DNA of 40,361 bases from Paracoccaceae bacterium (GCA_014623385.1 JACOMT010000016.1:1-40361); one strand, 5' to 3'; counted from the stretch's first letter, positions 9,462 through 39,436 are shown. The notes: generated by a model from the letters alone, not told the origin. Program-made: numbers and translations.

Positions 9462-9497
9462 CGTCTCATTTTACGTCTCATTTTGCGTCTCATTTTG
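9462..9497. repeat. 12 bp x 3 tandem repeat CGTCTCATTTT(A/G)
   Basis: Read directly: cgtctcatttta cgtctcattttg cgtctcattttg, starting 40 nt after the nhaA stop. Confidence 0.9.
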
Positions 9498-9799
9498 CAC
9501 CCATAATAAAGGACATTCTAAGCAGTCTTTCCGCAGTTATCGACTATTTTCTTCGGCTGATGTTCCACGACACGGGCTTGCCGGGAGGCATTGCGGCTGT
9601 GACTGGCCTCATCGGGGGTGGCACCCATCGGTCCAGACCTCTCCTTTGCAGACTGATACCGCGATGGTTTCAAACGCACCCCTGGTCGATTGATCCTCTG
9701 TTATTCTTCACACGGTGCATCACCGAATGGCCCAATGCGTATATCGGCAACATCCCCGTCACATCACGAGTAACTTTTTGACGTGCCCCAACAGGCGGT

Positions 9800-10891
9800 C
9801 AAATCATGCCGGGCCCGTGTCGGAACACACGCCATGGCAGCCTTCCCCTATGGCGCAATCGCCGCATAAAGCGTTGAATGATTGCGCGGGTTTTTGCTTC
9901 CGGTGGCCGACAGGTTCATGCACATTGCCGTTCGTTTTGTGGGGTCCGGCCTGGCTCGATTGTCGGCGGGGTCAACCGCTCGGCCCTCCGCTGGGTTTCC
10001 CTGGTTGTTCGCCGCCATACGATCCAGGGAAGCAATCCAAATCAAAGCGATGTTTCCCGCTGTTCCCAAACCATGCGATTTGCCCATGGCAGTTTGCGAA
10101 AAATGCTCTGTGCTTGCATCCTTGTTCGGATAATGCCACATGGCCGGTTGGCCACAGGCATGGCCCCTGTGTGGTACGACAGAAAACCGCCACTCCCAGC
10201 CTCGCCGCAGTATTGAAACTCACCGGATAGTGCGATGCTGTAAGTTGACAAAGCTCCCGTCAGGAATCGGCCCATTCAACGCAGTTCCCGTGACAGTTCG
10301 ATACCGCCATCATAATGGTGCAAGGCGGGTCACAAACAAGCCGTTGAGCGAACGCGCCGGGCAATCTGGCAAGGGTCTTGCGGCAATCGGAAATGGCGAC
10401 ACCAGGGTGCGGCGCATCCACGGTGCCCAGGTCCATTTCCTCAATGAACAATTCCCGTCGTCGCGACAGATGGGTTCATGGCCTCCGCGCCGGAATTGCG
10501 GTGCGCCCCTGTTCAGCTTGTCATCCTGTCCCCGGTAATGCCACGAACGGACCGTCAAAACAGGCCGTTGCCCCGCCCCAAGGCACATGCACCAGTGCAT
10601 CCTGCGCCCATGGTTCGCAAAGCCGCCCGCGGCATTCGCGGGGCACCGTCCAATTTGGCAAGACGGCCTGTGGGATATTGACCTTACGTCCTTCGGGCGT
10701 CCCGCCAAAAACAGGGTCGCGGCGAAATCCGAACCTTGCAAGAACCCGACATGAGGGACAGGCATTTTATCGGGCAGACGCGGTTAGGCTTGTGGGCGCG
10801 GGCCATGGCGGTTTTTCCCTCCGCCACCGAAGAAACCCTGATCCTTGGTCTTGCCCTGTGTCCGCCCCCGCATGGACGGTTTCAGTGCCAT
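9800..10891 (-). pseudogene. Possible sulfatase / alkaline-phosphatase-superfamily pseudogene (weak)
   Basis: No ORF over ~150 aa in over 1 kb. Minus-strand fragments include ..ACFDGPFVALPGTG.. (compare C.PSR..LLTG), ..PTGHVALSEQGCKHRAFFANCHGQ.. (compare PT....L.E.GY.T...GKWHLG) and ..GKHRFDLDCFPG.. (compare GFD.F.G). The assignment is tentative. Confidence 0.3.
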
Positions 10892-10982
10892 TTCCCCCGA
10901 TGCCTTGGCCGCACTGACAAGCCTGGTCCGGTATCGCCCAAAGCGGCCCGGTCCCTTGATGATTGCGTCGTCTTGTTAAGGT

Positions 10983-11155
10983 GACGGAGGATGCTCAAAG
11001 CGCGATTAGGTGGAACGGGCCTTGAAAATGAGGGGATGGGGGTGGATTTGGAGACGGAGCACGGGAAAGCGGGAGCAACGATTTAGTGCTCAATCAAAGG
11101 CCGAATTTAACCCGGATGGGCAGAATTATGGTGTCGAAAATGAGGGGAAACAGGT
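10983..11155. repeat. Copy A of a ~170 bp paralogous intergenic element
   Basis: Aligns by eye with 26849-27004. Shared blocks are GA.GG.ATGCTCAA.G, TGGATTTG.A.A, TT.GTGCTCAATCA.AGGCC.GAATT, CC.GGATGGGC.GAATTAT.G and TCGAA.ATG.GGAAA..GGT. Confidence 0.6.
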
Positions 11156-11677
11156 CAGACACAGAGAAACCGGGGATGAGGCGGCGGGTAAAGATTGGTC
11201 GGCGACATTCAGTCGGGGTGTCGATGCGGTTTTGACGCTGCACCCGGTCCCGGTGGCACTGGCATGATGGGTAAGGCGGATGATTCGTGGACCGAGACGA
11301 CGACGCGGGTGAACAGGGAGAGGGGGCTGTGAAACACGCCACCATGACCACGCCGAGTGCCGCATCGAAGCTTGCAAAACCCCGCCCCCGTGCAGCCTGC
11401 CTGGTCGCGCAGATAGCTTCTTACAAGGCGTTTAACCAAATCCACGAATGCTACCTCTAGGGGGGCACCATCCATCGTAGCCTAAGAAACAACCACAGGC
11501 CCAACCCCTAAACCTTTTGACAGCATTTTCCGGATCATTGATATTTAGAAGATCACAACATCAAGGTCAAGCAGCGACCCCAAACCAAAATGGACCTGGT
11601 GATCTCGGCCACGCCTCAATCATGATAAATCCGTTTGGGTACCGCAAAAATCCCTGCTCCCGCCGATCTGCAATGCC

Positions 11678-12466
11678 TCAATTTGCGATATCGATGAACA
11701 GATTGTCGCTTTCGACAAAATCCAGCCAATCGTGTTCCACGGTACCTTCGTTGATATTGCGCGACTCGACCCGACCATCGCCATAGCCTATCACAACCAT
11801 GTCACAGGTATCAATGAACAACCCGTTTTCAACGACACCCGGGGTCTGATTCACAACCATGGCAAGCCGACGGGCATTGCCGATCCGTTGCAGGTGCAAG
11901 TCCAGGATATAGTTACCCTCATCCGTCATGAATGGCAACTCCCCGTTCATTCGCAATGTGACGGTTCGGCCCAAAACATCCATGGAAATCAACATCTCTT
12001 CGATCAGGGCCTGCGTCGTTTGCCAACCAAACGGGATCACTTCGACCGGCAGGGGAAAGGCACCCAGCGTTTTGACCTCTTTCCCGATATCGGCGATCAC
12101 CACCATTTGATCAGAGGCGGTTGCCACAATCTTTTCCTGCAAGAGTGCGCCCCCCCCACCTTTGATCAGGTTCAGATCCCCGTCAAACTCATCCGTCCCA
12201 TCAATGGTCAGGTCCAGCCATTTCGCCTCGTCCAAGCTGATCACCTTGATACCCACATTACGGGCCAATTCAGCGGTTCGGATGGATGTTGGAATACCCC
12301 GGAATTTCAGCCCGGCCTTCTGCACCATTTCGCCCAGGCACCGCACCAGCCAAGCCGCCGTGCTACCCGTGCCCAGACCCACGCGCATGCCATCCTCGAC
12401 AAAATCGGCGGCACTTTTTGCCGCAACGAATTTGGCCTTGTCAATAGGCGACAAATCTCCGGACAT
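11678..12466 (-). CDS. rpiA: Ribose-5-phosphate isomerase A
   Basis: Intact 262 aa ORF with ..GMRVGLGTGSTAAW.., ..TSIRTA.. and ..IDGTDEFD..LNLIKGGGGALLQEKI.. motifs. Confidence 0.92.
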   Translation of the reverse strand: MSGDLSPIDKAKFVAAKSAADFVEDGMRVGLGTGSTAAWLVRCLGEMVQKAGLKFRGIPTSIRTAELARNVGIKVISLDEAKWLDLTIDGTDEFDGDLNLIKGGGGALLQEKIVATASDQMVVIADIGKEVKTLGAFPLPVEVIPFGWQTTQALIEEMLISMDVLGRTVTLRMNGELPFMTDEGNYILDLHLQRIGNARRLAMVVNQTPGVVENGLFIDTCDMVVIGYGDGRVESRNINEGTVEHDWLDFVESDNLFIDIAN

Positions 12467-12502
12467 TTCAGGTTCTCCTGCGGTATTGCGCGTTTATAGG
12501 CC

Positions 12503-13060
12503 ATGTTCCCATCGAGGGCGAGGGACAAACCCATCGCTTTGCTGGAAGAATTGGGGGGTGCCATATCGCACCATCTTGTTCAATCACCAAAGCCGGGGGC
12601 AGCAGTCAGAGGTATATCGCAAAATGAACCCAAACGGGCTGATCTCCGTTCTTGAAACGCCCCAGGGCCTGATTTTCGAAACCGCCACGATCTGCCTTTG
12701 GCTGTCCGAACGACATGGAGCTTTGGCACCCCTGCCCGGCGGTGCCGTCACGGACGGCATTTCTGAAATGGTTGTTTTCAAATACGGTCCATGCGGAATT
12801 GCGGTTATTGTTTTATCCGGGCCGGTGTATTGGCTCTGATTGATGCTTTATTGGATGGCGAATGACAGAGCGCACTGTGATTGGCATTTATGCCACGGCC
12901 TGCCTGCGATGGGACCAGATATATCCAACGGGTCACACGGGCTGGTTCCACTGGTCCACCTATCCAAACCTGCATGCCCGTGCCGCGATGCTGGAAACCC
13001 ATGCGACCACGGACCGCGTTGCCATGGCCCAAGGGCCGGGCCAAAATCATTCACACAAGC
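12503..13060 (+). pseudogene. Glutathione S-transferase pseudogene (at least two frameshifts)
   Basis: ..KPIALLEELG, then a frame change at the G6 run near 12551-12556, then VPYRTILFN....QQSEVYRKMNPNGLISVLETPQGLIFETATICLWLSERHG. A second shift near 12755 gives AFLKWLFSNTVHAELRLLFYP. The C-terminal piece is ..YPNLHARAAMLETHATTDRVAMAQG in a third frame. Confidence 0.7.
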
Positions 13061-13097
13061 ACAATGCCCCAACTCACCCGAAGGATACACCGTCTAG

Positions 13098-14471
13098 ATG
13101 TTTTTGTCCGTCTTCGAAATGTTTAAGGTCGGCATCGGCCCGTCATCGTCCCACACGATGGGGCCTATGTTGGCTGCCGCACGGTTTTTGGACATGATAC
13201 GTGCCGCCCCCTTCAGTGCCCACGGGATTCGGGCATCCTTGCACGGCTCTCTAGCCTTTACCGGCGTCGGCCATGCAACGGATCGTGCAACCATCCTGGG
13301 CCTCGCTGGGTTTTCCCCCGAAACATATAGCGCCGAATCGGCAGAGGCAGCAATGGCCACCATCGCCGAAACAAAGACGCTGACACCCGACGACCTGCCC
13401 TCTTTGTGCTTTGATCCGGACAGCGACCTGATTTTTGACTACGATCACGCATTGCCCGGTCACGCCAATGGCATGATCCTAATGGCTACCGACGCCCAGG
13501 GCGACGTGATCCTGCAACAGGTGTTTTACTCCATCGGCGGCGGTTTTGTGATGACCGAAGAGGAGCTGGCCGCAGGCAAAAACACCGAAGACGGGCCTAC
13601 GGTCCCTTATCCGTTCAAATCCGCCTCGGAAATGCTGGAGATGTCCGGTGCATCCGGCAAATCTATCGCCGCAATGAAACGCGCCAATGAAATCAGCCGG
13701 ATGGATCAGGCTAAGTTGACCAAGGGCACGACCCGCATCTGGCACGTTATGAACAACTGCATCAACCGGGGCCTGCAATCCGACGGGATCCTGCCGGGTG
13801 GCCTAGGCGTGAAACGCCGGGCCAAGGGGATTTACGATGCGCTGATGGATGAAAGGGGCATGAACCTGAAGGCCCCGCATACGATCAATGACTGGATGAG
13901 CGTCTATGCCATGGCGGTGAACGAGGAAAACGCCGCCGGTGGTCAGGTGGTCACTGCCCCCACAAACGGGGCGGCGGGCGTGATCCCGGCCACTTTGCGC
14001 TATTACCTGGATCACGTACCTGGTGCCTCGACCGCGCATATCGAGGATTTTCTGCTGACCGCCTCAGCGATTGGCGGGCTAGTGAAATACAATGCATCGA
14101 TCAGCGGGGCCGAGGCCGGATGTCAGGCCGAGGTCGGATCGGCTAGTGCCATGGCTGCCGCCGGGTTATGTGCTGTGATGGGAGGCAGCCCAGAACAGGT
14201 TGAAAATGCCGCCGAGATCGCGCTGGAACACCATCTGGGCATGACATGTGACCCGGTTAAAGGTCTGGTCCAAGTGCCCTGTATTGAACGCAACGGGCTC
14301 GGCGCGATCAAGGCAGTGTCGGCCGCCAGCCTGGCTTTGCGCGGGGATGGCACACATCTGGTATCACTGGATGCCTGCATCGAAACGATGCGGCAAACAG
14401 GCATTGATATGAGCGAAAAGTACAAGGAGACATCTTTGGGTGGTTTGGCGGTGCACGTTCCAAACTGCTAG
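13098..14471 (+). CDS. sdaA: L-serine ammonia-lyase (L-serine dehydratase, single-chain Fe-S type)
   Basis: Intact 457 aa ORF with N-terminus MFLSVFEMFKVGIGPSSSHTMGPM and C-terminal ..LEHHLGMTCDPV.GLVQVPCIERN... Confidence 0.93.
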   Translation: MFLSVFEMFKVGIGPSSSHTMGPMLAAARFLDMIRAAPFSAHGIRASLHGSLAFTGVGHATDRATILGLAGFSPETYSAESAEAAMATIAETKTLTPDDLPSLCFDPDSDLIFDYDHALPGHANGMILMATDAQGDVILQQVFYSIGGGFVMTEEELAAGKNTEDGPTVPYPFKSASEMLEMSGASGKSIAAMKRANEISRMDQAKLTKGTTRIWHVMNNCINRGLQSDGILPGGLGVKRRAKGIYDALMDERGMNLKAPHTINDWMSVYAMAVNEENAAGGQVVTAPTNGAAGVIPATLRYYLDHVPGASTAHIEDFLLTASAIGGLVKYNASISGAEAGCQAEVGSASAMAAAGLCAVMGGSPEQVENAAEIALEHHLGMTCDPVKGLVQVPCIERNGLGAIKAVSAASLALRGDGTHLVSLDACIETMRQTGIDMSEKYKETSLGGLAVHVPNC

Positions 14472-14535
14472 CGCCAAGCTGCCGACGGGCAACCTGTTTT
14501 ACATAACACGCAGGGGTCCCATATGGTGACTGCCA

Positions 14536-15420
14536 ATGACACTTAACCAGCCTATTTTGGGGCATACTCATTATGTTGGGCTTTTGCATTGGAGCACCGA
14601 TGGGCGATGTGCTGGCCAAACTGTTGGGCGATGAGGTGACTTTGGGCCAGTCGGTGTGGGTGCTTTTGCCGCAAAGATCGTCATTTCGGTCCCAATCGTG
14701 TGGCTGACCGGCTTGGCATGGCGGATGTGAGGCCGCGTAATACGGCTGATCGTTTTGCGCACCGCCCTGCATATCATCTGGGTCGGTGCGATGTTCACGG
14801 CCCTGCAATAGCTGACTTTGGCCGATGTGGCGGCCGTCGCCTTTGTTATGCCGTTCATCATGTTGATGTTAGGCCAAATCGTTCCGGGGGAAGAGGTAGG
14901 ATAGCACCGGCACGGTGCCTGTATGGACGAGTTTGCCAGAACACTAATGATTGTTCAGCCCAGCTGCGCTGCCGTGGGTTGGTCCGCCTTGTGATCTCTG
15001 GCTGTGGCGGTTGTGTTTTTGCTCTTCATGTTGACCACACGGCAGATTGCCAAGGAAACGGATCCCATCAGCCTGCAAGCGGTCAGTGGCATTATTGCAT
15101 CGGTAGTTTTGCTGCCCGTCGTCCTGGTCGGCGACGCGTACCAAATTGAACTGCTCGGGTGGATTCACCTCAATTCTTACCCGTTGTTTTTGTTGTTGGG
15201 AATTGGCATCTTGGGCACCGGTGTGCACCTGTGGCGACCTTTTGGGGCTGGCTGATCTTTTCGGATTTGCCCAACGGGCTTGCCACTGCCAGGATCTGTG
15301 TCACGATCACCACCGGTCTTTACATCATTCTGCGCGAGATTCTACGCGAACGAGCCATTTCCGCAGCTCAGGATGGGCCAAAAAGATGCCCCCGCGGTAC
15401 CATCGCCAGCAGCCCGGGTG
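14536..15420 (+). pseudogene. Second EamA/DMT-family transporter pseudogene (frameshifts and in-frame stops)
   Basis: MTLNQPILG.. shifts frame to ..MLGFCIGAPMGDVLAKLLG... Later ..ADVAAVAFVMPFIMLMLGQIV.GEEVG is followed by a stop. ..LAVAVVFLLFMLTTRQIAKETDPISLQAVSGIIASVVLLPVV is followed by further shifts, then ..WLIFSDLPNGLATARICVTITTGLYIILRE. Confidence 0.65.
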
Positions 15421-16012
15421 AGTCAACCGCCAATGTGACGGTCCCCGTAGCTCGGTTCGACGTACCTACCTGATCTATTGGCGACAAAACCAACCCGTCA
15501 ATCGGCCATTCCAAACCGGTGGAACGCACCTTGACCGCCGCCAAGGGGTAAAGCGATACAACATCCCCCGCCGCTGTAGCAAGCGTCAGATCGGGGGGCA
15601 CGTGAAACACCAATTCGCTGCGCCCCAGTAAAACACAAGCTCGGTCAGCATGGCGCGCCAGCGTCGAAAGCGCGGCCAGCTGATGATCAACCCGTGCGCC
15701 AAGAAATCCGACGCCCAAGACAATCGGCGCGTATATGCTGCGCAAAGCCTTGTCAAAATCCGTAGTGTCCTGTTCGGTAATCGGAAATTGGCGATCCGTT
15801 GGAATGACGGCCTGGCTACTGGCTGTAATGGAGTCAAAATCGCCAATCACCGCGTCCGGCATATGGCCAAAATCCAGCGCCCGCGTCGCCCCGCCATCCG
15901 CTGCCACCAAAGATGGAGCAAATTCCAGTGCCGTGCTCAGGTCGACCTGATCAACCTCTCCCCCGCCGATCAATGTCACGGGATGAGGCGATGAAAATAG
16001 CGGCCTGGTCAT
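15368..16012 (-). CDS. Thiamine pyrophosphokinase
   Basis: Intact 214 aa ORF with ..VTLIGGGE......AL.FAP.LVAADGGA..AL..GHMPDAVIGDFDSI.., characteristic of TPK. Confidence 0.8.
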   Translation of the reverse strand: MTRPLFSSPHPVTLIGGGEVDQVDLSTALEFAPSLVAADGGATRALDFGHMPDAVIGDFDSITASSQAVIPTDRQFPITEQDTTDFDKALRSIYAPIVLGVGFLGARVDHQLAALSTLARHADRACVLLGRSELVFHVPPDLTLATAAGDVVSLYPLAAVKVRSTGLEWPIDGLVLSPIDQVGTSNRATGTVTLAVDSPGLLAMVPRGHLFGPS

Positions 16013-16734
16013 GCCTCACTCATCACTTTTTCAAGAAAAGACATAATAACGCCACACAACGCCACGAAATGATGTTCTTCGTTGGGCAGATTCGAGCTGC
16101 TTTTGGCCACAGACCCAGGTCCCAGACATGGGACAAAATCTCAGAGAACAGGCACCCGATGGTAATCAACAGTAAAAAAACCATAGTTGTATCCTATGAT
16201 ACATTCATCATAACATTCATCGTATTCCTGAACTCTGGAAGAGTTTGAGGACTTGTTTGATACAGTGAAGATAAATGCCGAGTATTTTCGTGGTCTCGCT
16301 GCAGATGACCGCTAATTCAGCACAAATCCACCGCAGCCGGATGCAGATATGTTGGCCGGGTCGCCCAACACGAAATTGACAGGCGTGTCGAAGCCCGTGA
16401 AGACACCGGCAAGATGGTTTTGCATCCCGCCGAAACAGCAGCGGCTCCAACCTATGACCTCCAAAAACTATGAAGTTTACCCAACGTACAGCGATAAGAT
16501 ACGGTACCTGACGGCAGAAGGCTACGAAGATCGATGAAATTACCTAATATTCTGGGTAAAAGGGACCAGAAATTTGTAAAATGTTCTGAAAGGCGGCACT
16601 GAAAAACTGCTCGGGCAGCGGATGCCAAAAATATTGAAACCCAAAAGGCTAAGGTTTTGTATCTTCCATGGAAGAATACAATAAGGGGGTTTGATCATCC
16701 TCCTATTCTCTGGTACGGATAGGAATGAACCCTT

Positions 16735-16788
16735 GTTGAAGATGCTGTTGGAAGCTCTGGTGTTGAAGATGCTGTTGGAAGCTCTGGG
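16735..16788. repeat. 27 bp x 2 tandem duplication
   Basis: gttgaagatgctgttggaagctctgg(t) is followed immediately by gttgaagatgctgttggaagctctgg(g). It lies in an AT-rich stretch with no convincing ORF. Confidence 0.95.
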
Positions 16789-18000: not shown

Positions 18001-18220
18001 CCCAACCCCAATAAGCCCAGAAATAGATCGCGCACCCTTGGATAGCCGCTGTGCGAAGGCAAATCCACACAAGATTGGTAATGGCCATTTCGCAGCGTCG
18101 GACCGCATCGAATTTACCTCCTCAACGTGCGCGGTTGGCTAGGATACCAGAAGTCAAGGGGCAATTTGCACGTTTTTGCACGTTTTGAGCGACCGCAGCA
18201 AAAAGCATAGCTATAAACGC

Positions 18221-19999: not shown

Positions 20000-21280
20000 T
20001 TGGCACTGGAACATTACGACATTCCTCTGTCTGTTGTGGTTTTGGCAGGTCTGATTTTAATCATTGGTCAGATAATCTGTTTGCGCGCCATGGTCTGGTC
20101 GATTGGCGAGTTCCGGCATGATTGCTATGGATTCTACATGACTTTGAAATGTTGTCCCCGGACGACCGCAACCTGAACATCTGGCTGGGGATTGTTGTGC
20201 TAGCAGTCCTGTTGGGCATCGGGCCGAATTGGGGCCATGTGTGCCGCGCGCTGTCGGACCGGTCGGATATAGACGAAGTGGACGAATGATCCGGTGCCAG
20301 GCGAACCGGCTGACCATGCGGCGTTTATAGACAGGCAGCGCACCAGGCGGTGGTCACATCTCGCACCTCGCCCGACTCCATCAAACCGTCACCGATCAAC
20401 AGATTTTCCACCGCGGCGGCCCAAATCGCCGCCATTGAGCGATTTCGTCAGCCCCTGTTTCTTTAACTCCAATGAAAAGACGCCCACCCATTCAGCCCAG
20501 TCCCGTTCAATTGCGACTATTACAACAAAACCTTGGCACATAACTTGGCACATAAAGGGTAAACCGAATGCGGGCGCGCACCAGTCGGTTACGCGGGGTG
20601 TAGATAGTATTATTGCCAGAGGTCCAAAACAACCTCACCCACCGGTCCCGTATCTAACCCCCACAGATTCTTCCCAGAAAAATGCCATCGCATACAACGG
20701 CTCTGGCGTTTTCTCAAACCATGCACTCTTTCGGGCAGGCACATGCGTGCTGTGATATAGCGTAAGACAGTATTTTGTTGCACTCTGGGTATATTGTGGC
20801 AGGCTGCTATGCTCGCCGGGAACAAAGGCATTACCCGCACGCCTCCGCCGCGCGCAGGCAGGCATCGGCCAGCGGATGAGCCGCTTCTGCGCCCCCCTCC
20901 GGTCATCTGTGGGCAGTGCACTCTGTGCCGCTAAAAGATTCGCAGGACCGGCCAGCCATTTTTACGTAATATTCGAATCGGGCATAATACCTGGATACCA
21001 GATATTCCTGTGCATGGCGCAACGTATTATGCTGTATTGTCTGAAAATACTCTCGCGGACAATCTCTGGACCACCAAAACGGCCCTCATGCCGTGTATTC
21101 GGGTCATTTGGCAGGCTCCCAAAACAATCTCCTGTGCCAAGCATGCTGTCACGCATGGCAAGCTGGGCCAGATCATTCTCACCCGGTCCGTCGGTACCCG
21201 CAGGACGTTGCGACAGAATCAGATACCGCACCCGGATACTGGAATCACAAACACGAATGCGCTTTGCCTTGTTCATCTAC
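20000..21280 (-). pseudogene. Lytic murein transglycosylase (MltB-like) pseudogene, approximate bounds
   Basis: Minus-strand fragments in shifting frames. ..EPLYAMAFFWEESVGVRYGTGG resembles I.AIWG.ES.FG...G. ..ELKKQGLTKSL.. follows. ..RFDGVGRGARCDH.. resembles DFDGDGRRDIW. ..SINAAWSAGSPGTG.. resembles ASIANYL...GW..G. Confidence 0.45.
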
Positions 21281-22384: not shown

Positions 22385-24028
22385 ATGGCTCGATTTATTT
22401 TTATCACCGGTGGTGTCGTATCATCTTTGGGAAAGGGTCTTGCATCTGCCGCGTTAGGGGCTTTGCTGCAGGCGCGTGGCTATTCGGTTCGGCTGCGAAA
22501 ACTGGACCCTTATTTGAACGTCGATCCCGGTACCATGTCCCCGTTGGAACACGGCGAGGTGTTTGTAACCGATGATGGCGCGGAAACCGATCAGGACCTG
22601 GGCCACTACGAACGATTTACCGGTGTGGCCGCACGGAAAACGGATTCCATCAGCTCCGGGCGTATTTATTCCAATGTTCTAAAAAAGGAACGCCGGGGTG
22701 ATTACCTAGGCAAAACGATCCAGGTGATCCCACATGTCACCAATGAAATCAAAGACTTCATCAAAATTGGCGAGGATGAGGTAGATTTCATGCTATGCGA
22801 GATTGGCGGCACGGTCGGCGACATCGAGGGGCTGCCCTTTTTCGAAGCCATCCGCCAATTCAGTCAGGACAAGCCGCGCGGTCAGTGTATTTTCATGCAC
22901 CTCACGCTTTTGCCGTTCATCAAAGCCAGCGGTGAGCTGAAAACCAAACCAACCCAACACAGCGTCAAAGAATTGCGCTCTATCGGTATCGCCCCCGATA
23001 TTCTAGTCTGCCGCTCCCAAGGTCCGATCCCACAGAAGGAACGCGAGAAGCTGGCCCTCTTTTGCAATGTGCGTCCTGAGGCTGTGATTGCAGCACAGGA
23101 CCTGAAATCGATCTATGAGGCACCGCTGGTCTATCACCGCGAAGGTTTGGATCAGGCCGTGCTGTATGCTTTCCGGATCAGCTCGGCACCCTGCCCCGCC
23201 CTGACCGTTTGGGAAGACGTGGCTGACCGCATTTATAACCCCGAAGGGGAAGTGAATGTCGCCCTTGTCGGCAAATATACCCAGTTGGAAGATTCGTATA
23301 AATCGATTACCGAAGCACTGAACCATGGTGGCATCGCCAACCGCGTCCGCGTGAATATCGATTGGGTTGATGCTGAGCTTTTTGAAAGCGAGGATCCAGC
23401 ACCGCATCTGGAAGGGTGCCACGCGATCCTGGTGCCCGGCGGTTTTGGCGAACGCGGCACCGAAGGCAAGATCAAGGCGGCCGAATTCGCCCGCACACGC
23501 AACATCCCATACTTGGGTATTTGTCTTGGTATGCAGACGGCGGTGATCGAGACCGCGCGCAACGTCGCGGGCTTTGCAATGGCTGGCTCCGAAGAATTCA
23601 ACCATGAAGCAGGAAAAAAACGTTTTGAAACAGTTGTTTACCATTTAAAGGAATGGGTCCAGGGTAATCACAAGGTTGAACACAAGGCTGACGACGATAA
23701 GGGTGGCACCATGCGTCTGGGTGCCTATGACGCGGTGCTGATGGCAGGGTCTCGGGTGGCAGAGGTTTATTGCAACACAGCCATCAAGGAGCGCCACCGC
23801 CACCGGTACGAAGTCGACATCAAATACCGCGACAAGTTGGAAGATGGTGGCTTAAAATTCACAGGTATGAGTCCCGATGGACGGCTGCCGGAAATCGTGG
23901 AACGGGCGGACCACCCGTGGTTCATTGGGGTACAGTTCCATCCGGAGTTTAAGTCAAGACCTTTTGAACCCCATCCTCTATTCAAGGATTTCGTGCGCAC
24001 GGCAAAGGATATGTCCCGTTTAGTCTAG
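22385..24028 (+). CDS. pyrG: CTP synthase
   Basis: [19 protein letters not shown]-terminus (ATG 22385 within ORF 22358..24028). The glutamine amidotransferase half carries GICLGMQ and HRHRYEV motifs. Confidence 0.96.
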
Positions 24029-24160
24029 AATAAAACACATTGCAGCCCCCCACATGGGCAGTGCGCACTTCACTGCGAAAATGATCCAAGCCGTAGGAAA
24101 TCGGGTACCAAAGCTGCTTCGTTTTGGAGAAGCATTCGTAACAGTATTTACATATCTAAA

Positions 24161-25551
24161 GACCCCTGCATAATTTAGAGGATTGCGGACAAACCATCAG
24201 CCCGGTATGTTCTCGGGAGGCCATCAGGGGTGGCCTGATGCACCTGTTTTTGCGCGGTTCGCGTTGAACGCGGTTCGGATCGGTGCAGACGACGTTCTGA
24301 CCGGAGATTGACGCCGGTGTTCGCCGACGCGCAAGCGCGGGGTGGGACACTGCGGGATCGGGCCTCAGGGTCGTGATCCGTCTGGTCCGCTTCACGTGTC
24401 TGCCGATCAGGCAGTGGTACCCCGAAGCTGGAGCGCACACCCTCAACTGCGGTTAACTGCGGTTGGATTTCATGCTGTTTTGCGGTCTCGACCTCTTTGC
24501 GCCTGTGCCCGATGCGACGACCCATTGCCGTTTTCGCAACTCACGATGATCTTCTGGCCGGGGGTTGCCGTGCTCCGCAAAACCGGACCGAAGAGCAGGC
24601 CCCGACGATCCGCCCGACAATCCAGGCGTGCATTTCAGTGCCGACACGCAAGCGCGATGGGTCAGGAAAAGCCCGAAGCGTATGCCGGGCGACAAGATGA
24701 CATCCAACGGTCTAGCTCGCCCGGACGTGGCCCGGACGAGGAAGGCTTCATCGACAAGGTCCACACGGTAAGGTCCACACGGGCACCTGCGAAACACCAC
24801 ACCTGCGAACTGGGCTAGGAGCCCCGCGCTTGATCCCATGATCGAAAGGGCGAATGCGCTTACGGGTGGCAGGTTCAGGGAGTTCAGGGTGGTGACGATC
24901 AAGGCCGAGACCCGCGCCGCCTTTGCCAGCGTGCTCATATCCACTTACGCAGGCTCCGATTTCAACGACCTCTGCATAAGTGGCGGATTGCGGACAAACC
25001 AGACAGCGGCGATCAAGGTCCAAAGGGTACCTGCGAACCGGGCCAGGAGCCCCCGGGTTTGATACCATGGTCAAAGAGGCGAACGCGCGGACGGGTATTG
25101 GCCCGAAAAGACCTGTGCCAGCAAGGCAAACCGGGACGGGCCTGCGCGGTCGCCACCGTGACGGGATCATGCGAACGACCGCCCGTCATTGGCCCCTGCG
25201 GGCTTTGGAACAACGCGGGGGCGGCTGATCTGCAAACGCCGCTTGAGGGATTGCGCAATGCCTATGCCACGATGGCACACCGCCCGATAGTTCGGGCCAG
25301 CCAAAACAATAGGCTCAACTGGCGCTGGCGGCAATCAGGCAGAACCTGCCCCGCAAACAGCGGCAATCGCATAACCAGATCACCAAAATCGCTTTGCCCG
25401 CTGTAAGAACAAGTAAGGCCAGCAGACCGGACAGAATGGCCAAATCAAAGCGTTCGCCGAACATCACGCGTTCACGTAGAGGTCTTAGTAAACCTTTGCT
25501 GGGATTTGCGCGACAAAACGGACCACAACCACCACCCTCAACTTGAACGTT
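24161..25551 (+). mobile_element. Mosaic of dead IS fragments
   Basis: Order is: IS-Y terminal stub (24161-24218), IS-B 5' part (24219-~24868), IS-Y 3' fragment (~24869-25001), IS-B 3' part (~25002-25551). This is homologous to the reverse complement of 36855-37956 and of 1-308. IS5-like fragments include ..DDPLPFSQLTMIFWPG.. and ..GRVLARKDLCQQGKPGRA.. (compare VLADKAY.SKANRDAL). The module GGATTGCGGACAAACC occurs twice (24181-24196, 24985-25000). About 70 bp of IS-B is present in two diverged versions on either side of the inner IS-Y fragment. Confidence 0.65.
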
Positions 25552-25599
25552 AGAGAATTGATGCGTCAATCTATTCAATCTATCAAGTCTAGTGTACGC

Positions 25600-25900: not shown

Positions 25901-25906
25901 CAAACC

Positions 25907-27004: not shown

Positions 27005-27927
27005 ATGCATGAGAAATGGGCAGCCAACCGTCGAACAGCACATTGGTGAAATTGATCCGGCTGCAGAAGGTGAAAATCGCTCGCGCCAATCCTTCGAGCG
27101 CTTTATGCAATCACTCTAATATCTCTTAGAATATTAATGTCACTTGGAGCTATACAATCATGCAGACCGAATCCATGTGGCCTCTGCCCCACGGTCATTA
27201 GCGCGCGTTCCAGGGAATTGAACAAGGCCACAGCGATCAGTTGCAGCGCGGAACTATCCTATCAGCTTAGCGGCATAGGACCTAACGAGGCAGCATTGTT
27301 GTTGTGTCGGGTGATCAGCGTGTTATCCAAAACCCCCGTTCTGCACCAAAGGCCGACGACCCAATATGCTGTAGATAAACCGGAAACGGCATCACCGCAT
27401 CCAGGCCCGCGACGCGGTCCTGCTGGCTGGCAGACAGGCTTTATGTCCTTGCACCGAACCGTACGCCCGTCTTCGATCTATTGACGGCGCGGTGGCAGTA
27501 TTGACGAGACCGGGGAACCTCTAAATTGGGGGGCACCCCTAAATTTGGAAGGACGTTTCTTTGAACGTCTGTCTGTAGGTGAACCACATGCAGAACAAAC
27601 CAGTGAACCAAACCTGCCTCGATCAGGTTAACAAGGCCTTTGAAATCTATCGCCAAGAAGTTGCAGAAACGGACTTGGCCCTGAATACCTAAAGAGACTT
27701 GCCTGCCCCATGCGAAACGCTTTGTCTGAACGTTTAGTCCGCTGGCTGGACGGCGACGTTGAGCCGGGTTCTAATAAACAGCGGTGAGATCAGTTGATAA
27801 CGCGCGAACCACGGGAAAGGCAGCACAATGACCGGGACATTGAGCGTCATGGAATGCGCGATTCGGGAAAGGAACACCCGCATGTTCCCCGCATGTTCCC
27901 GGCGCAATCGGTACCGGTGATGGGCGC

Positions 27928-30005: not shown

Positions 30006-30009
30006 GAGA

Positions 30010-30435: not shown

Positions 30436-30949
30436 CGGCAGTTCCCAAAATCTGGTGTTTAGTTAGCTATCCAAGTGTTCGTCAGGATCAAGGAGATCGC
30501 TATGTCAGCACAACATACGCGGGTCAAAATCCCGCAGGATATGCGCCAATTCCGACACGATCACAGGAGACGCCGCTTTCTTGGGCACGAACCATGTTCG
30601 TTTCCACACTGCCCGTTCCGGGAATCGGCACGACAAGGATTTTACACGGATTTTACTTTTACGGGATAAACCATCACCACACTGGTAATAAAATCCCAAG
30701 CATCGATCATCGCCTTTTCCGATCACCCTGCCTCTTCTTAGGCTTCCTGTTTCGCGGATTGCAGCGGCGTTTTGTTTGATATTGGCCAGCCTTTGAGCGC
30801 GACCCAGCGTCTGGTTATGCGCGAGGTTACCAGCAAAACCTGTAGTTTATCGCCTGATATGCGATAGGCACCAACCTCCGGGTGCCACGAGTGCCAATTG
30901 CGGCAAGCAATGAGCCGATCATCCTGGGTGTTTGCCCCTCACACAAGCG

Positions 30950-32887: not shown

Positions 32888-33032
32888 GCCCCGACCCTAA
32901 GGGCGGGGCTGTGTTCAGCCTCTATTTTAATGCTTGTCCAAAATAGCGATGCGCATCGAATAGTTCGAGCCCAATGCGTATTCGGGGTCATTATGGCTAG
33001 CCACCATCAGGTGCTCGGCTATGGTCGGCAGC

Positions 33033-34445
33033 TTAGTACTTGGTGGTTACCGCCTCAATGGCTTGCAAAGCGAATTTGTCGGCAACGCAGCTGTTTTCGG
33101 AATCCACAAACACAGGAACCGGGTCAGATTTCGGGGCGGACTGTTCGATGAACCCTGCGGCAGAATCAGAAAACAGCGGACCCTGAACCTCATAAACCCT
33201 GTTGCCTTCAGGCATCATGTGGATTTTTGTATAGATTGCCATTTGGCGTTGTTCTGGGCATAGGCCGACGCGGAAACGATTACGCCAACGGCCGCCGAAA
33301 GGGTGAGGTCTTCCATCACGGTAACCAGAACAATGACAAAGGCATCGGTCAGCGACACGCGATGCCAGGATATTCAGCGCATCCCAAGCAAAGGTATCGA
33401 TTACGACCATGAACAATTACATCAACCAGCGCGGCCAGCGGGTTCTGTTCAGGTATGAGGGGTGGCAACCAGGATGAAAACCGACAGGAACAGTGCCGCC
33501 GCCGCCCGCAATCCGGGTTCCACCACCCGATTGCACGTTGATCATCGATTGACCACTCATTGCACAGCCGCTTATGCCGCCCCAAAAGCCGTTAACTGTT
33601 TTTGCCACACCTCGGACAATACATTCCCAAGATACATTCCCACGATGTGCCGCCGCGTTTATTTGGCATTTTGCCTACCAGGTTCAGGGTCAAAAGGCTT
33701 CCGATCAGGTCGATGGCTGACAGGTTCATTGCTATAAGCCAAAATGATTTCCAGGGATTCCCGCTCAGCGGACCCATGGGAATGTGAAAGGCAGGCACCC
33801 TGCTCTCGCTCCAGACCATGTTCCCGACGCGCGGCACAACCCAGGCCAAAGGCAATCAACAAGCCCGCGACGGGTACGGGTATCACAGACGTCTATCACA
33901 GGTGTCATGATGTGCAGTATAACGCGTCGCGTGTCCCTGGATGATGCCCATTATCAGCGCAACCAGGCCCGGCACCAGGCAAAATAGCCATGCCGATCAA
34001 CCATTCGCCACCGGCCACGCAATGCCCGTCCCTAACCATGTGCCCGGTACTTTGAACCGGGCTCATCTATACCAGAAAGATCACTATGGCCAGCCCGTTC
34101 ACAAACCCCGGCATTACTGGATGGGGTACCAGCTGAATGAATTTGTCCCATTGCATCACACGGACAGAGACCTGTGGCAGGCCCATCAAAACCACCGCCG
34201 TAAAGCGGTATTCGATCTCATGCTCCTTAACCAGCGCGACTATGACGACCGCCAGTGTACCCGTTGTCCCCAGGATCATGCCAGGCGGTGATCAGCCCCG
34301 CCAGAAAAGCCGCATATAGTTCAACCAAGGTTATGCACGGCCACAAAGGCAAAGCTCACCGCCTCCGGCACCAGGGCCAGCACAACGGTCAGGCCCGGCA
34401 GCAATTCGATGTGCAGCCGTGCAAAGGACAAAAACCGTGAACCGG
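33033..34445 (-). pseudogene. SulP-family anion transporter pseudogene (many frameshifts/stops)
   Basis: N-terminal ELLPGLTVVLALVPEAVSFAFVA.., then ..[33 protein letters not shown]......[25 protein letters not shown] (ORF 34067..34279), then a STAS-like C-terminus ..VYEVQGPLFSDSAAGFIEQ.. (ORF 33033..33416). The pieces lie in at least four frames. Confidence 0.75.
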
Positions 34446-34739
34446 ACCCGATCCCAGGTCAGTCAGCGTGAGACGACTGACAAATGATGCCAGGGATGGT
34501 ACAGGTTATGGGCGATCTTGTGTTCAGACACATACGGATTTTTACGGATTTTGCGGCAGATTTTGACAGACCTTTGGCGGGGAACATGCAAAATGCCAAT
34601 AGGTCGACACAAAAGGCCAGTATGCATCCATGGCATAGCGGGTCAGCCTTTATGTGCATGCAATACGAAATTTCGCGCACACCCCTACAAGGAATCAATA
34701 AAAAATGTGCACGCCCGACGTGTTCGTTTGACCCATCGA

Positions 34740-35094
34740 TTGTGATCTAGCCACTTGCGATCACTGAACGCCTGAATCAGAATTTGTGCGATGGCATACT
34801 GAAATTTGGCGACAGCACCAGAACCACGTTTTGACGTGGGTTTGTGACCCGTCACGTCACGGGTGTCGATTTCACCTGTGGTAAAGTCCTGGATAAGCCT
34901 GTGGTAAAGTCCTGGATAAGGACGTGATCGTGCACGGCACGGCGACCGGATTGGTCGATTACCGTCATTGAATCGGCGACATTGTCACCTTGAACGGCAT
35001 CATGAGCGATTTCGCAGCTGCGCCGTAGGCAGAAAACACCAACACCGATCCGAATGCCATTGGCATATCTGGCTTTGTCAACTATCTCCTGCAT
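34740..35094 (-). pseudogene. Unknown ORF disrupted by a perfect 23 bp tandem duplication
   Basis: ORF 34852..35094 (MQEIVDKARYANGIRIGVGVF...). The duplication cctgtggtaaagtcctggataag x2 at 34875-34920 shifts the frame. Removing one unit extends the reading frame downstream. No family recognised. Confidence 0.4.
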
Positions 35095-35517
35095 AATAAA
35101 TCGCTAAGAGCGTGGCATCACAGGATGGACGACAGATAATTTTTGACTGCGATGGCTGCAACCGGCTGACCGGTGGTAACGGTGAGGTGCCATTCATTTT
35201 TTGCCCCGTATCCAGCTACGATAAAGATCGCCTAATCCAGGTTACAATTATGACGACTATCTGATCATGACCCGCGGTGACAAGGCGACCATGGTCGTTG
35301 AGCAGGGCACACCGGTTGAAACAACCGGTCGAAACAAAGGTTGACCTATGACGGTGATGTCATTGTCGTCAACGACCCGGTCGCGGATGACTTGACCGTC
35401 GATGATCCCCTGTTCGTCTAACAAAATCGCGGTCCCCGGTGTTGACATGCCTTGCAGACCGGCACAAAATCTTGTCAGGTTTAGGTGGAAACTGCCAACA
35501 GCGTGGGGGTGGCAGGC

Positions 35518-36390
35518 ATGGCGCGTACCAAGCTCGGCATCATCGGCGGTTCGGGCATTTATGAAATCGACGGTCTGGCGGGTGCCGCCTGGACCACGGT
35601 CGACAGCCCATGGGGTACACCATCGGATGCGATATTGACCGGCACACTGGATGGCGTGGCTATGGCTTTTTTGCCCCGTCACGGGCGCGGCCACGTTCAC
35701 AGCCCGACCACTGTACCCTATCGCGCGAATATCGATGCCCTAAAACGGCTGGGTGTCACCGATGTCATCAGCGTCAGCGCCTGTGGCTCTTTCCGCGAAC
35801 ACATGGCACCTGGCGATTTTGTGATCGTTGACCAGTTTATCGACCGGACCTTTGCCCGCGAGAAGAGCTTTTTCGGCATCGGCTGTGTCGCGCATGTGAG
35901 CATCGCCCACCCGACCTGCCCGCGGCTTGGCGACGCCTGCGAAACGGCAGCTCGCACGGTGGGCATCCACGTGCATCGGGGCGGTACTTATCTGGCGATG
36001 GAGGGCCCCCAGTTTTCGACGCTTGCGGAATCCAAAATGTACCGCGAAAGCTGGGGCTGTGATGTTATTGGCATGACCAACATGCCAGAGGCGAAACTCG
36101 CCCGCGAGGCCGAGCTTTGTTACACCTCGATAGCCATGATCACCGATTATGACAGCTGGCATCCCGACCATGGCGAGGTCGATGTGACCGAGATCGTCAA
36201 GGTACTGACCGGCAATGCCGAAAAGGGGTGCGCCCTGGTGGCGCAATTGCCCGGGCTGCTGGGACCGGATCGGGTACCTTGTCCGCACGAATGCGACCGC
36301 GCGTTGGAATACGCCATTCTGACGGCCCCGGAACAACGCGATCCGGCATTGGTCGCGAAACTGGGTGCTGTTGCAGGACGGGTTTTGTAG
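35518..36390 (+). CDS. mtnP: S-methyl-5'-thioadenosine phosphorylase
   Basis: MARTKLGIIGGSGIYEIDGL... (ATG 35518 within ORF 35485..36390), with ..FLPRHGRGH.. and ..GMTNMPEAKLAREAE.CY..IAMITDYD.W motifs. Confidence 0.92.
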   Translation: MARTKLGIIGGSGIYEIDGLAGAAWTTVDSPWGTPSDAILTGTLDGVAMAFLPRHGRGHVHSPTTVPYRANIDALKRLGVTDVISVSACGSFREHMAPGDFVIVDQFIDRTFAREKSFFGIGCVAHVSIAHPTCPRLGDACETAARTVGIHVHRGGTYLAMEGPQFSTLAESKMYRESWGCDVIGMTNMPEAKLAREAELCYTSIAMITDYDSWHPDHGEVDVTEIVKVLTGNAEKGCALVAQLPGLLGPDRVPCPHECDRALEYAILTAPEQRDPALVAKLGAVAGRVL

Positions 36391-36842
36391 TGTCCTTCGT
36401 TGCTGCATCTGTCGCCTTGCTGCTGATTCCTGGCCCGAAATCGTATTGCTGGTGCAGAGCTATGCTTTCAGCAGTTGCCTTGGGTGACTTCATTGCGATG
36501 ACCGCATCGATCCTGGCATCCACCACGCTGTTTGCGGCACTGAAATGGACCGGGGTGCTGTATCTGGTCTGGTTGGGCATCAAATTGATCAAAAGTGCCA
36601 AGGACAACGATATCACGCTGATGCCGATTTCTGGTGTTTGTGCCCCAGCTCATCGCGCCTGATGCGCCGATCCTCTGGCCGCGATCAACGCACTGACCTA
36701 TGCTGTTCTGGCAGATCGTTTGCGCCAGGCAATTGCCTGATCGGGTGTCGTCCCGTTGATCACACGCGCAGGTGGGGCCACATTAGGGGCCACATTGATT
36801 GTCATGGGAGTGCTAACCGCAGCAGTGCGACGCCCGGCTTGA
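36390..36842 (+). pseudogene. LysE/RhtB-family exporter pseudogene (internal deletions and frameshifts), abutting the IS relics
   Basis: VSFVAASVALLLIPGP.. ...LGDFIAMTASILASTTLFAALKWTGVLYLVWLGIKLI is followed after a shift by ..FLVFVPQLIAPDAP.. and later ..LTYAVLADRL... Segments expected between these motifs are missing. Confidence 0.65.
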
Positions 36843-36854
36843 CCACCCTGCCCC

Positions 36855-37956
36855 GTTCTTCTTCAGGAATGCGCGTATAAAGCCCCGCCGGTATCCAGTG
36901 CTTTGCACAGTTCGAAGGATATGATCGCGTGAGCGCGTGATGTTCGGCGGAAGCGTCGATTGGGCCATTCTGTCCGGTCCTCTGACCTTTTCGATGGCCT
37001 TACATCTGGCAAAGCGGTTTTGGTAGTCCGGTTCTGCGATTGCCGGTGTTGGCGGGGTGAGGGGCGGCTCCCCGACAGGTTCTGCCCGATTGCCACCAGC
37101 GCCCAGCTGGGCGTCTTGTTTTGGCCAGCCCGAACTATCGGGCGGTGCGTCATCGTGGCATAGGCATTGCTCAATCCCTCAAGCGGCGGTTGGAGGTCCG
37201 CCTGCCCCCGCGTTGTTCCCGGACACGCAGGGCATCCCGGTTGGCCTTGCTGGTACAGGCCTTGTCGGCCAATACCCGCCCTGACCATGGTATCAACCCG
37301 GGGACTCCGGGCCCCGGTTCGCAGCTGCCCTGTGTAGACCCTGTCGCTGAAACGTTCCTTGTCCAGGCCTCATCCGGACCTCATCCGGGCGGGCAAAGCC
37401 GGTGGATGTCATCTTCCTTAACCCGGCGTACGGTTCGCGCCGTTCCTGACCCACCGTGCTTGCGTGTCGGCACTGGAATGCACGCCTGGATCGTCGGGCG
37501 GATCGTCGGGGGACCTCCTCTTCGGCCTGGTCTTGCGGCGCGCCCATATGGCTGCCGGGGCGGGTGGCACGTTCCACCGCTGCGGCCCCGTGATCCCCGG
37601 CCAGAAGATCACTGTGGGTTGTGAAAACGGCAACGGGTCGTCGCATCGGGCACAGGCGCAAAGAGGTCGGGACCGCAAAACAGCATGAAATCCAACGGAA
37701 TTTTCAACGCCCGCTCCAGCTTTGGGGGTGCCACTGCCTGATCGGCAGACAGTTGAAGCGGACCAGAGGATCACAACCCTGACGCCCGATCCCGGCGCGC
37801 CCCAACCCGTGCTTGCGTGTCGGCGAACACCACCGCCAGTCCCTTAAGGTCGTCAATCCCGGTCAGAACGTCGTCTGCGCCGATCCAAACCGCGTTCAAC
37901 ACGAACCGCGCAAAAACACGCGCAAAAACAGGTGCATCAAACCACCCCTGAACGCC
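36855..37956 (-). mobile_element. Dead copy 3 of the IS5-family-like element IS-B (most complete, ~1.1 kb)
   Basis: Minus-strand fragments are ..LSADQAVAP.. / ..DDPLPFSQPTVIFWPGITGPQRW.. (N-terminal region) and ..GRVLADKACTSKANRDALR.. (compare VLADKAYDS.ANR.AL of IS5-family DDE transposases). Stops occur in every frame. Terminal sequences are cgttcttcttcagg (left) and cctgaacgcc (right). Confidence 0.6.
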
Positions 37957-38612
37957 GGAACAACGCGCCGCATCGGTCGTAGTGGGTGGCGATCCGACGC
38001 CAGTCGTTCAGGCGAACGAACAGGTTCTCGACCCGGTGATACTGCCGTGATCGGCGGGGCTCTTGCGCCCGCGTCGGGCCGGGATGCAGGTGGCAATGCC
38101 TTAGCCAGTCGGCATCGTAGCCCTTGGCGGCCCAGGGGCACCTTGGCGGGCGGCAAGGTACCAGGGCGACCCAGCTTCGCGTTGCCGCGCGCATCCGCGG
38201 GCGACAGGCAGAACGTCAGAGGCCGCCCCGGCGATTACAGGCCATGTGCAGTTTCGGGTTCAGCCCGCGCCTTTGGTCCGTCCGATGTCCCGCGGTCGAG
38301 GGAGGCTTTTGAGATGCTTACCGCTGTTCTGTGGACCTTGGGGTGGGTGCTGTCGAACATGATTGTCTTACCGTGGCCCCCCGGCCCGGCGTGCTCGACG
38401 AAGATCCGGGTGAACACACCCATGCCCGACCAGCGTCAGCACCCGCCGGTCATCAACCCACGACTTGCCCCGGAACTCAGGAAAGAACAGCTGCAGTCGC
38501 TCCATATATTCGTCGGTCAGCCAGAAATGCCCGATCATCATGCCCACCCGGTCCCCGGGTGTTTGAAGCACGCAGCCCTGGCGGCCTCAAGCACGTTTAA
38601 GGGTCCTTGACC
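37957..38612 (-). mobile_element. IS5-family (IS427-type) transposase relic IS-A, internally deleted and 3'-truncated by IS-B
   Basis: Minus-strand ORFs: MIGHFWLTDEYMERLQLFFPEFRGKSWVDDRRVL.. (38368..38571), MGVFTRIFVEHAGPGGHGKTIMFDSTHPKVHRTA.. (38235..38423), and ..AAKGYDADWLR...HRVENLFVRLNDWRRIATHYDRCGALF (37937..38194). About 35 codons are missing between the first two blocks. Homology stops at 37957, where IS-B begins. Confidence 0.8.
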
Positions 38613-38919
38613 CTAGGGGGCTGTATTTTTTACTTGCAAAGCTGTTTGTCTTTCTGCGTCTGTCGGTAAAAAGACGGCGGTAGTAATAACAAGAATAGAA
38701 ATGCAAATGGACGTTATAATTGAACGTTATAACCGCAAAAATTTTTCTGCTCCGTGGCCGTATGGGCTGGAAAACCACGAATTCCGGCGACTCATCGGCA
38801 CATTGTAGCACCGCATTTTTCGTAAACACATTCAAAATAGGGCTCAAATACGGGGCCTGCGTGCTTATTTGCCTGATTTTCCGTAGGCTATCGGGCCAAA
38901 TTGCGGCGGTGTTTTCCGA

Positions 38920-39120
38920 CTTGGGGCGGTGCCAGCGGGTTTTGTGATGCGAACCCCCCGAAGAGGTTCACTGTGAGGTTCACTGTTTGGTTCCGGTGTG
39001 ACAGCCGGAGGCGGTGCGCGTCTGCCCCCCTGTGCCTGCAAAGGACGGGACCGGGAACCGGACGGCCGCGGAACAGCACCGTGGCAACGTGCCTGTGCTG
39101 CCCTATCAGGCACCCCGCCC
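38920..39120 (+). promoter_or_regulatory. Candidate decayed cobalamin-riboswitch-like element (orphan)
   Basis: GGGGCGGTGCC (38923-38933) can pair with GGCACCCCGCCC (39108-39119). Between them lie a GGGTT..AACCC hairpin, CCGGTGTGACAGCCGG (compare C.GGTG..AA..CC.G), CTGCCCCCCTGTG (compare CTGCCCCCGCAACTGT), a GGGAA block, and TCAGGCACCCCGCC (compare the B12 box CCAGGAGACCTGCC). No gene lies downstream on this strand. Confidence 0.35.
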
Positions 39121-39436
39121 TGTGGCAAGGATGAAGCAGATACCATCTCTGGAGTGCCGAAATTCCGGGTCCATATCGTTACACCGCACCCGGCATATCC
39201 CTCGCATATCCCTCACCGGGCCTGCGGGACAAACATGTCCGGGGAAAGGGGGGATCAGCCCATCACCCGATTTATACAACAAAGCCTTTGCGACAGGCTA
39301 GCCACAGGCACCGATTCGCTGGGGGGTATGCCACTGCCCAGCACAACCCGATGGTGTCTCCGGTTGACGCATCCTGCACCATGACTGATGTCACAAGGCT
39401 TGCCGACACGGATAGCGGCATACGGACCGATCCGCA

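Follow-up and report, generated by a model that had tools for sequence, protein, structure and literature searches.

A strand-specific C(-4) mark at both ends of short tandem duplications in a pseudogene-rich Paracoccaceae genome suggests a topoisomerase I-type origin

The window analysed here is a stretch of 40,361 nucleotides from a Paracoccaceae bacterium (GCA_014623385.1, JACOMT010000016.1:1-40361), in which an initial annotation, made from the sequence alone, had listed 17 short head-to-tail duplications. We found that such duplications occur throughout the genome, far in excess of controls and of related genomes, and that in most of the unambiguous events a cytosine is located four bases 5' of each end of the duplicated unit, with both cytosines on one and the same strand. 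This double boundary mark, designated below the double C(-4) mark, together with the blunt junctions and the length of about 10 bp, leads us to regard a single-strand cut of the topoisomerase I type, followed by extension and rejoining of the cut strand, as the probable origin of the duplications, although this reading of sequence patterns is far from certain.

Genome-wide excess of short tandem duplications

The genome, a metagenome bin of 2.89 Mb with 57% GC, contained 398 exact two-unit duplications with a period of at least 10 bp, which corresponds to 138 per Mb. Markov controls of order 3 yielded none of that period, while those of order 5 gave on average 3.7 duplications of period 10 and 0.7 of period 11, but no longer ones. 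Four relatives together had 8 such duplications in 1.2 Mb, and the sampled sequences were as follows (exact duplications, period of at least 10 bp):

Same-genus genome G001: 1 duplication in 400 kb
Relative G005: 1 duplication in 400 kb
Relative G002: 4 duplications in 300 kb
Relative G015: 2 duplications in 100 kb
pyrG loci of 80 genomes: 7 duplications in 583 kb

The density in the related free-living Rhodobacterales was thus about 20-fold lower than here. The proposal of the initial annotation that a specific mutational process lies behind the density was borne out, since the counts were far above the Markov controls and above those of the relatives.

The distribution of the duplications with respect to coding sequence was equally uneven. 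Inside open reading frames (ORFs), taken from stop to stop and with a length of at least 250 amino acids, the density was 0.46 per 10 kb vs. 2.71 outside them, a 6-fold depletion that agrees with the expected concentration in pseudogenes and noncoding DNA. Multiples of three made up 50% of the duplications inside long ORFs and 23% of those outside. The events are therefore visible in dead DNA because selection purges them from working genes. Exact duplications and those with one mismatch were equally frequent (excess over the control at periods 10–14 of 342 and 338, respectively), which indicates that the process has been long-running. In neutral DNA, which makes up about 40% of the genome, the rate was estimated at approximately one duplication of period 10–14 per 150 substitutions (about 100–150).

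The least probable of the explanations considered is an assembly or sequencing artefact. The assembly is indeed fragmented, being a metagenome bin of 262 contigs with a completeness of 80%, and one discrepancy between assemblies was observed: at window position 15383/15384, the ENA scaffold has 17 extra bases (TCGACAGCACAGAGGAT). These lie exactly at a JGI contig end, so the difference belongs to the scaffold joint and represents no biological variant. Apart from this 17-bp joint, the ENA, JGI, and Logan assemblies, in which identical DNA from one sample (SAMN04939363 / SRR3666246) was found, agree base for base over window positions 3098–24454, and the identical sequence includes the duplications at 9462, 16735, 18165, and 20532. 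The depletion within long ORFs and the enrichment of multiples of three there, the abundance of decayed duplications relative to exact ones, and the lack of such duplications in the same-genus bin and in other metagenome bins also argue against an artefact, from which a C(-4) motif would not be expected either. The duplications are genuine, mostly neutral, blunt head-to-tail mutations that accumulated steadily in a pseudogene-rich genome ridden with insertion sequences (IS).

The C(-4) boundary mark and the length of the units

For the boundary analysis, 270 unambiguous events from the whole genome were aligned on their boundaries, with a background base frequency of 0.28. Only two positions stood out, namely C at -4 (0.51 at the left boundary and 0.49 at the right) and G at +4 (0.44 and 0.48, respectively). 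The left and right C were positively associated (odds ratio 4.9, p = 6e-10), as were the left and right G (odds ratio 4.9, p = 1e-9), whereas the opposite-strand pairing of a left C with a right G was depleted (odds ratio 0.45, p = 0.0014). These strand-linked correlations indicated that each end of the segment is preceded, at four bases, by a C, and that both of these C residues are on one strand. The same-strand double C(-4) mark was present in 159 of 267 events, compared with 15.8% at random sites (p = 3e-59), and in 137 of the 228 events located in non-repeated DNA; for periods 10–14, its share reached about 71%. When the strand was picked from one boundary alone, the other boundary had C(-4) in 80–83% of cases. 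We found no report in the literature of a C(-4) boundary mark on natural mutations or at both ends of a duplication.

Other features of the units were weak. The duplicated units were slightly AT-richer than their flanks (0.537 vs. 0.569), and their self-complementarity of 0.229, vs. 0.235 after shuffling, gave no palindromic symmetry. The residual asymmetries comprised C at -6, A at -5, and T at -1, +1, and +2 of the left site, and G at -1 and +1 of the right site. These differences between the two sites may reflect the place where the 3' end frays and the place where strand-displacement synthesis stalls. Among the rare duplications of the relatives themselves, the mark was found in 7 of 30, which is the null level, although these are mostly chance 9-mers or in-frame coding repeats and the comparison has little power.

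The length spectrum was also distinctive. The excess over the Markov control amounted to 115, 98, 85, 82, 41, 37, and 17 duplications for periods of 9, 10, 11, 12, 13, 14, and 15 bp, respectively. After subtraction of the background, the lengths thus formed a hump at 9–12 bp with a steep fall past 14 bp and without three-base periodicity, and the events bearing the C(-4) mark peaked sharply at 10 bp within a span of 9–14 bp. The spacer profile had a sharp spike at 0. The distribution of the run length minus the period (294/127/39/17 observed) was close to that expected without microhomology (291/147/56/19); the junctions thus have no microhomology beyond chance, which rules out classical slippage.

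Unlike those of periods 10–14, the exact 15-bp duplications had the C(-4) mark in only 2 of 10 unambiguous cases. They may belong to another class, for example in-frame coding repeats.

A topoisomerase I-type reaction and its alternatives

Bacterial topoisomerase I cuts a single strand, becomes covalently linked to the 5' phosphate, and holds the 3' segment with the C at -4 in a groove. In the reaction that we propose, a type IA DNA topoisomerase I would cleave one strand at 5'-C-N-N-N-cut and stay covalently on the 5' end. The freed 3'-OH end would then escape, and a DNA polymerase would extend it by approximately one helical turn (~10 nt), displacing the enzyme-bound strand. The enzyme would join the held 5' end to the new 3' end once a C is again located four bases back. 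One strand would then read upstream-unit-unit-downstream with a loop of ~10 nt, and the next replication would fix the tandem duplication. Such a cut-extend-rejoin scheme would account for the short units with their blunt junctions as well as for the double mark on the same strand. The gate of topoisomerase I has been described as opening up to 6.6 nm (10.1101/356659), and a gate of this size, equivalent to ~10 nt of single strand, could possibly act as a ruler for the 10-bp mode.

The mark corresponds to a known property of these enzymes. Cleavage four bases 3' of a C is the preference of reverse gyrase and of all topoisomerase I enzymes characterised from bacteria and archaea, but not of topoisomerase III (Narula and Tse-Dinh, 2012; PMC3467081). 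The duplications described here are similar in that they have C at -4 on the strand that would provide the 3'-OH and require little else; however, the published selectivity concerns the biochemistry of cleavage (PMC3467081), whereas here it appears as a boundary mark of natural mutations.

The closest known system is the Escherichia coli topA R168C mutant, which generates repeat-independent tandem duplications of 2–19 bp at a high rate, with the galK and tdk events mostly 8–13 bp long (Bachar et al., 2020; PMC6954433). The authors found no motif, and among the possible causes they named a malfunction of topoisomerase I catalysis itself. Both cases involve de novo head-to-tail duplications without pre-existing repeats, and the lengths are comparable (mostly 8–13 bp within a range of 2–19 there; a mode of 10 and a range of 9–14 here). 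However, R168C is a laboratory point mutant with a ratio of duplications to substitutions of ~1:2–4, unlike the natural genome with its ratio of ~1:100–150, and a wild-type-like cleavage signature is found at both ends only in the latter. Thus, the present case works like the topA R168C mutator but cannot be classed as the same thing.

Two further groups of short duplications are less similar. Microhomology-mediated and Rad27/FEN1-dependent duplications (PMC8639346, PMC13167724) are likewise short, neutral, and purged from coding DNA, but they require flanking microhomology, of which none beyond chance was found here. In "Candidatus Burkholderia" symbionts of leaf nodules, roughly one in two insertions in pseudogenes creates a direct repeat (Danneels et al., 2018; PMC6054270). 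These genomes are also pseudogene-rich and host-restricted and have tandem insertions, so the existence of tandem insertions in decaying genomes was already known (PMC6054270); unlike here, neither a boundary motif nor a length peak around 10 bp was reported, and the insertions were tentatively attributed to insertion and excision of IS elements.

Several observations weigh against the topoisomerase I origin. The assembly, which is 80% complete, has no type IA topoisomerase gene detectable by a PF01131 profile search or by tblastn. When the galK and tdk events of the E. coli R168C mutant were placed on the MG1655 sequence, those with a period of at least 7 bp had the double C(-4) mark in only about 1 of 13. 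In the present genome, about 30–40% of the events are without the full motif. The marked strand showed no bias with respect to GC skew (101 vs. 107) or to the inferred coding strand (69 vs. 65). Deletions of 9–16 bp in the ~220 copies of the IS-B family (described below) had the motif in 22–25% of cases vs. 19% for the null, in an alignment to a majority consensus that is noisy. In addition, the rate of ~1 per 150 substitutions is not clearly above the possible output of wild-type bacteria. As to the E. coli result, we conjecture that the context may differ in the mutant, R168 being a neighbour of the residue that reads the -4 base.

The absence of topA from the assembly is most probably due to a gap and not to gene loss. 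The genes that flank topA in relatives, namely the cox cluster and a CoA-transferase subunit (frameshifted here), stop at contig ends (the end of contig C161 and the start of contig C106), and this position of the syntenic neighbours in an 80%-complete assembly points to a gap. TopA candidates from the same sponge project (P0004) and from another JGI sample (P0006) were rejected, as their contigs were 71–77% identical or unrelated and thus came from other organisms. A metagenome scan for topA returned no record from the genome's own sample.

Replication slippage or template switching was the mechanism suggested by the initial annotation. Under slipped-strand mispairing or microhomology-mediated duplication, the strand being synthesised shifts its pairing to a short direct repeat, so that the interval is replicated a second time. 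Short duplications are classically explained in this way, a frameshifted mutS is present in the genome, and arrays of more than two copies, such as that at 9461, probably grew by slippage after the first event. As an account of the first events themselves, however, slippage is very improbable: the microhomology at the junctions is that of chance, the lengths peak at 9–12 bp instead of decaying from short ones, polA is present with its 5' nuclease intact, and slippage gives no reason for a strand-specific CNNN-cut motif at both boundaries. Hardly more plausible is an origin from double-strand breaks with 5' overhangs of ~10 nt that were filled in and rejoined, whether these came from transposase cuts, from excision footprints of paired target-site duplications, or from paired nicks on opposite strands followed by end joining. 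The genome has undergone a huge IS burst (~220 IS-B relics, repeats amounting to 10%), blunt duplications of ~9–12 bp resemble target-site duplications, adjacent opposite-strand nicks are a source of tandem duplications in plants (cited in PMC6954433), and IS footprints have been proposed for the Burkholderia symbiont pseudogenes (PMC6054270). Nevertheless, staggered breaks need marks on opposite strands (C at -4 upstream and G at +4 downstream), the very pairing that is depleted at an odds ratio of 0.45; the exclusive outer-only and inner-only patterns numbered 9 and 6, compared with 50 and 42 for the same-strand patterns. The units also lack palindromic symmetry, their variable lengths (7–27 bp) give no fixed stagger, and Ku and the LigD polymerase domain (TIGR02772, TIGR02778) are absent from the 80%-complete genome and from 12 relatives.

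An unlikely explanation, though one with more to recommend it than the two preceding ones, is that the same single-strand cut and rejoining was performed by another enzyme with a preference for C at -4, such as an HUH nuclease of a mobile element, a second type IA paralogue, or an unknown nickase. The assembly offers no topA gene sequence, the duplications of the E. coli topA mutant are without the motif, and the additional weak positions differ between the left and right sites, all of which would suit such an enzyme. On the other hand, the selectivity published for bacterial topoisomerase I and for reverse gyrase is exactly this one, C at -4 with little else (PMC3467081). The sites of HUH nucleases and type IIS-like nickases comprise several specified bases in a row, a pattern not found here, and the assembly has no PF01131 paralogue.

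The rate of duplication may be elevated in this lineage, as would be the case with an altered TopA, or it may be ordinary and visible only through the ~40% of the genome that is neutral. We suggest, with considerable reservation and leaning against it on balance, that wild-type bacterial topoisomerase I might generally give rise to short tandem repeats de novo, in a way not recognised before, through an occasional extend-then-religate error, with the length set by the enzyme. If this were true, a diagnostic C(-4) double-junction signature should be readable in any genome with enough neutral DNA. The birth of tandem repeats from non-repeated sequence was named an open question in the E. coli topA study (PMC6954433), and the natural genome described here supplies hundreds of independent duplications whose junctions are defined to the base pair. 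What had been a loose association between topoisomerase and duplication thereby becomes a concrete, testable reaction scheme, with a simple computational signature that can be used on other genomes, mutation-accumulation data, and clinical isolates. For symbiont genomics, it means that such insertions run steadily against the deletion bias, at ~1 per 100–150 substitutions during decay.

The initial annotation had also linked the duplications to the loss of a repair function. The repair genes were found in the following state:

mutS: contig C4, 9292-9726 and 9948-11846; split by a frameshift and a gap of ~67 nt
mutL: contig C19; one open frame, intact
polA: one open frame, full length (5' nuclease intact)
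recJ: one open frame
xseA: one open frame
uvrD: one open frame

The idea was partly upheld, in that mutS is frameshifted: the N-terminal 145 residues lie in one frame and residues ~252–884 in another, so that mismatch repair was probably lost. Otherwise, mutL, polA, recJ, xseA, and uvrD look intact, and nothing ties mismatch repair to loops of 10 nt. To our knowledge, mismatch repair is inactive on loops of this size, and therefore no causal link to mutS is drawn. Two separate recJ-like genes were observed on the small contigs C257 and C259; they could represent a paralogue, strain heterogeneity, or slight contamination of the bin.

Duplications of the window and decay of the genome

The organism appears to be a sponge-associated Rhodobacteraceae symbiont. 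The relatives identified by pyrG all belonged to the roseobacter group of the Rhodobacterales, and the genome seems to match the metagenome-assembled genome (MAG) SP12ARB1 of the sponge Lamellodysidea herbacea (PMC7313196), in the description of which pseudogenes go unmentioned. The intact coding share of the window is ~43%, and the genome-wide coverage by long ORFs is far below that of the relatives. Old repeats constitute ~10% of the genome. Predominant among them is IS-B, an IS5-like family with ~220 dead copies or fragments that have diverged by ~10% from the family consensus. The decay of these copies is very rich in indels, with ~30 gaps per kb between any two of them, and the IS-B alignment of 127 kb contained 12,309 substitutions, 1,387 deletions, and 1,557 insertions. 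Three copies are located in the window:

1-759: IS-B copy
24144-25506: IS-B copy
36927-37956, unstranded: dead IS-B copy 3, IS5-like, ~1050 bp; the copies of the family serve to polarise insertions

Two methods were applied to the window, Tandem Repeats Finder (TRF) and our own exact scan for two-unit duplications. All 17 duplications of the initial annotation were recovered at their listed positions or within 4 bp of them, 11 as exact duplications and 6 with one mismatch. At 25566, where approximately three copies had been claimed, two copies of 9 bp were found. In total, TRF detected 31 short arrays in the window, and those beyond the earlier list include arrays at 4939, 7332, 15327, 24601, 34533, and 37488. 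Exact two-unit duplications with a period of at least 10 bp numbered 12, whereas 5.6 were expected from the genome average; this density of approximately twice the average (p = 0.012) fits the low share of intact coding sequence in the window. The double C(-4) mark was present in 7 of the 10 unambiguous exact duplications of the window, including those with units of 23 and 27 bp. The duplications are as follows (duplications without an assigned strand are given as unstranded, and "double mark" refers to C(-4) on the same strand at both boundaries):

4939-4964, plus strand: 12 bp x2.2, one mismatch; in an EamA pseudogene, not in the earlier list; double mark in one phase
7332-7358, plus strand: 13 bp x2, one mismatch; upstream of a UDG-family gene; double mark
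9461-9498, unstranded: 12-bp unit ACGTCTCATTTT, 3.1 copies, exact; downstream of nhaA; one of the two C(-4) marks
16734-16787, plus strand: 27 bp x2, exact; C at -4 of both boundaries
18165-18186, unstranded: 10 bp x2.2, exact; downstream of purA; phase ambiguous by 2 nt; without double mark
20532-20555, minus strand: 12 bp x2, exact; double mark
24445-24464, unstranded: 10 bp x2, exact; in a dead IS-B copy, copy-specific; one mark only
24756-24783, plus strand: 14 bp x2, one mismatch; in IS-B, common to the copy on contig C61; double mark
25566-25583, unstranded: 9 bp x2, exact; without double mark; period 9 has the largest chance component
27877-27900, minus strand: 11 bp x2.2, exact; double mark in one of three possible phases
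30633-30656, unstranded: 11 bp x2.2, one mismatch; without double mark
33619-33646, plus strand: 13 bp x2.2, one mismatch; double mark in one phase
34533-34552, minus strand: 10 bp x2, exact; double mark; not in the earlier list
34875-34920, minus strand: 23 bp x2, exact; double mark
35311-35337, minus strand: 13 bp x2, one mismatch; double mark
36773-36797, unstranded: 12 bp x2, one mismatch; double mark possible on either strand, depending on the phase
37366-37389, plus strand: 11 bp x2, one mismatch; in the IS-B consensus, inherited
37487-37510, plus strand: 12 bp x2, one mismatch; in the IS-B consensus, inherited
37907-37930, minus strand: 12 bp x2, exact; end of IS-B copy 3, copy-specific; double mark
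38963-38986, unstranded: 12 bp x2, exact; double mark on both strands
39193-39214, plus strand: 11 bp x2, exact; double mark

None of the 17 duplications first listed lies in an intact gene, as had been stated. The only repeats found in intact genes were an 8-bp repeat at chance level at 13938 (sdaA) and a 12-mer with two mismatches at 23669 (pyrG). The duplications at 24445 and 37907 had been described as specific to their IS-B copies, and comparison with the family consensus agreed with this, both being insertions relative to it. Two corrections to the earlier list concern IS-B as well. The duplication at 37368 is already present in the family consensus, as is the one detected by TRF at 37488, and both were thus inherited with the element and do not represent independent events. 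The duplication at 24756 is common to another IS-B copy, located on contig C61.

A contribution of the duplications to pseudogenisation, which the initial annotation had supposed, was not supported. Removal of one copy of the unit restored a long ORF in 10 of 281 cases, compared with 43 of 796 nearby control deletions. The control deletions restored ORFs no less often, and a role of the duplications as primary gene-killing lesions was thus not supported. Among the three top cases in which an ORF was restored, the two that were located (in cobQ and in a ubiH-like gene) had the duplication at or before the start codon. The duplications are mostly passengers in DNA that was already dead.

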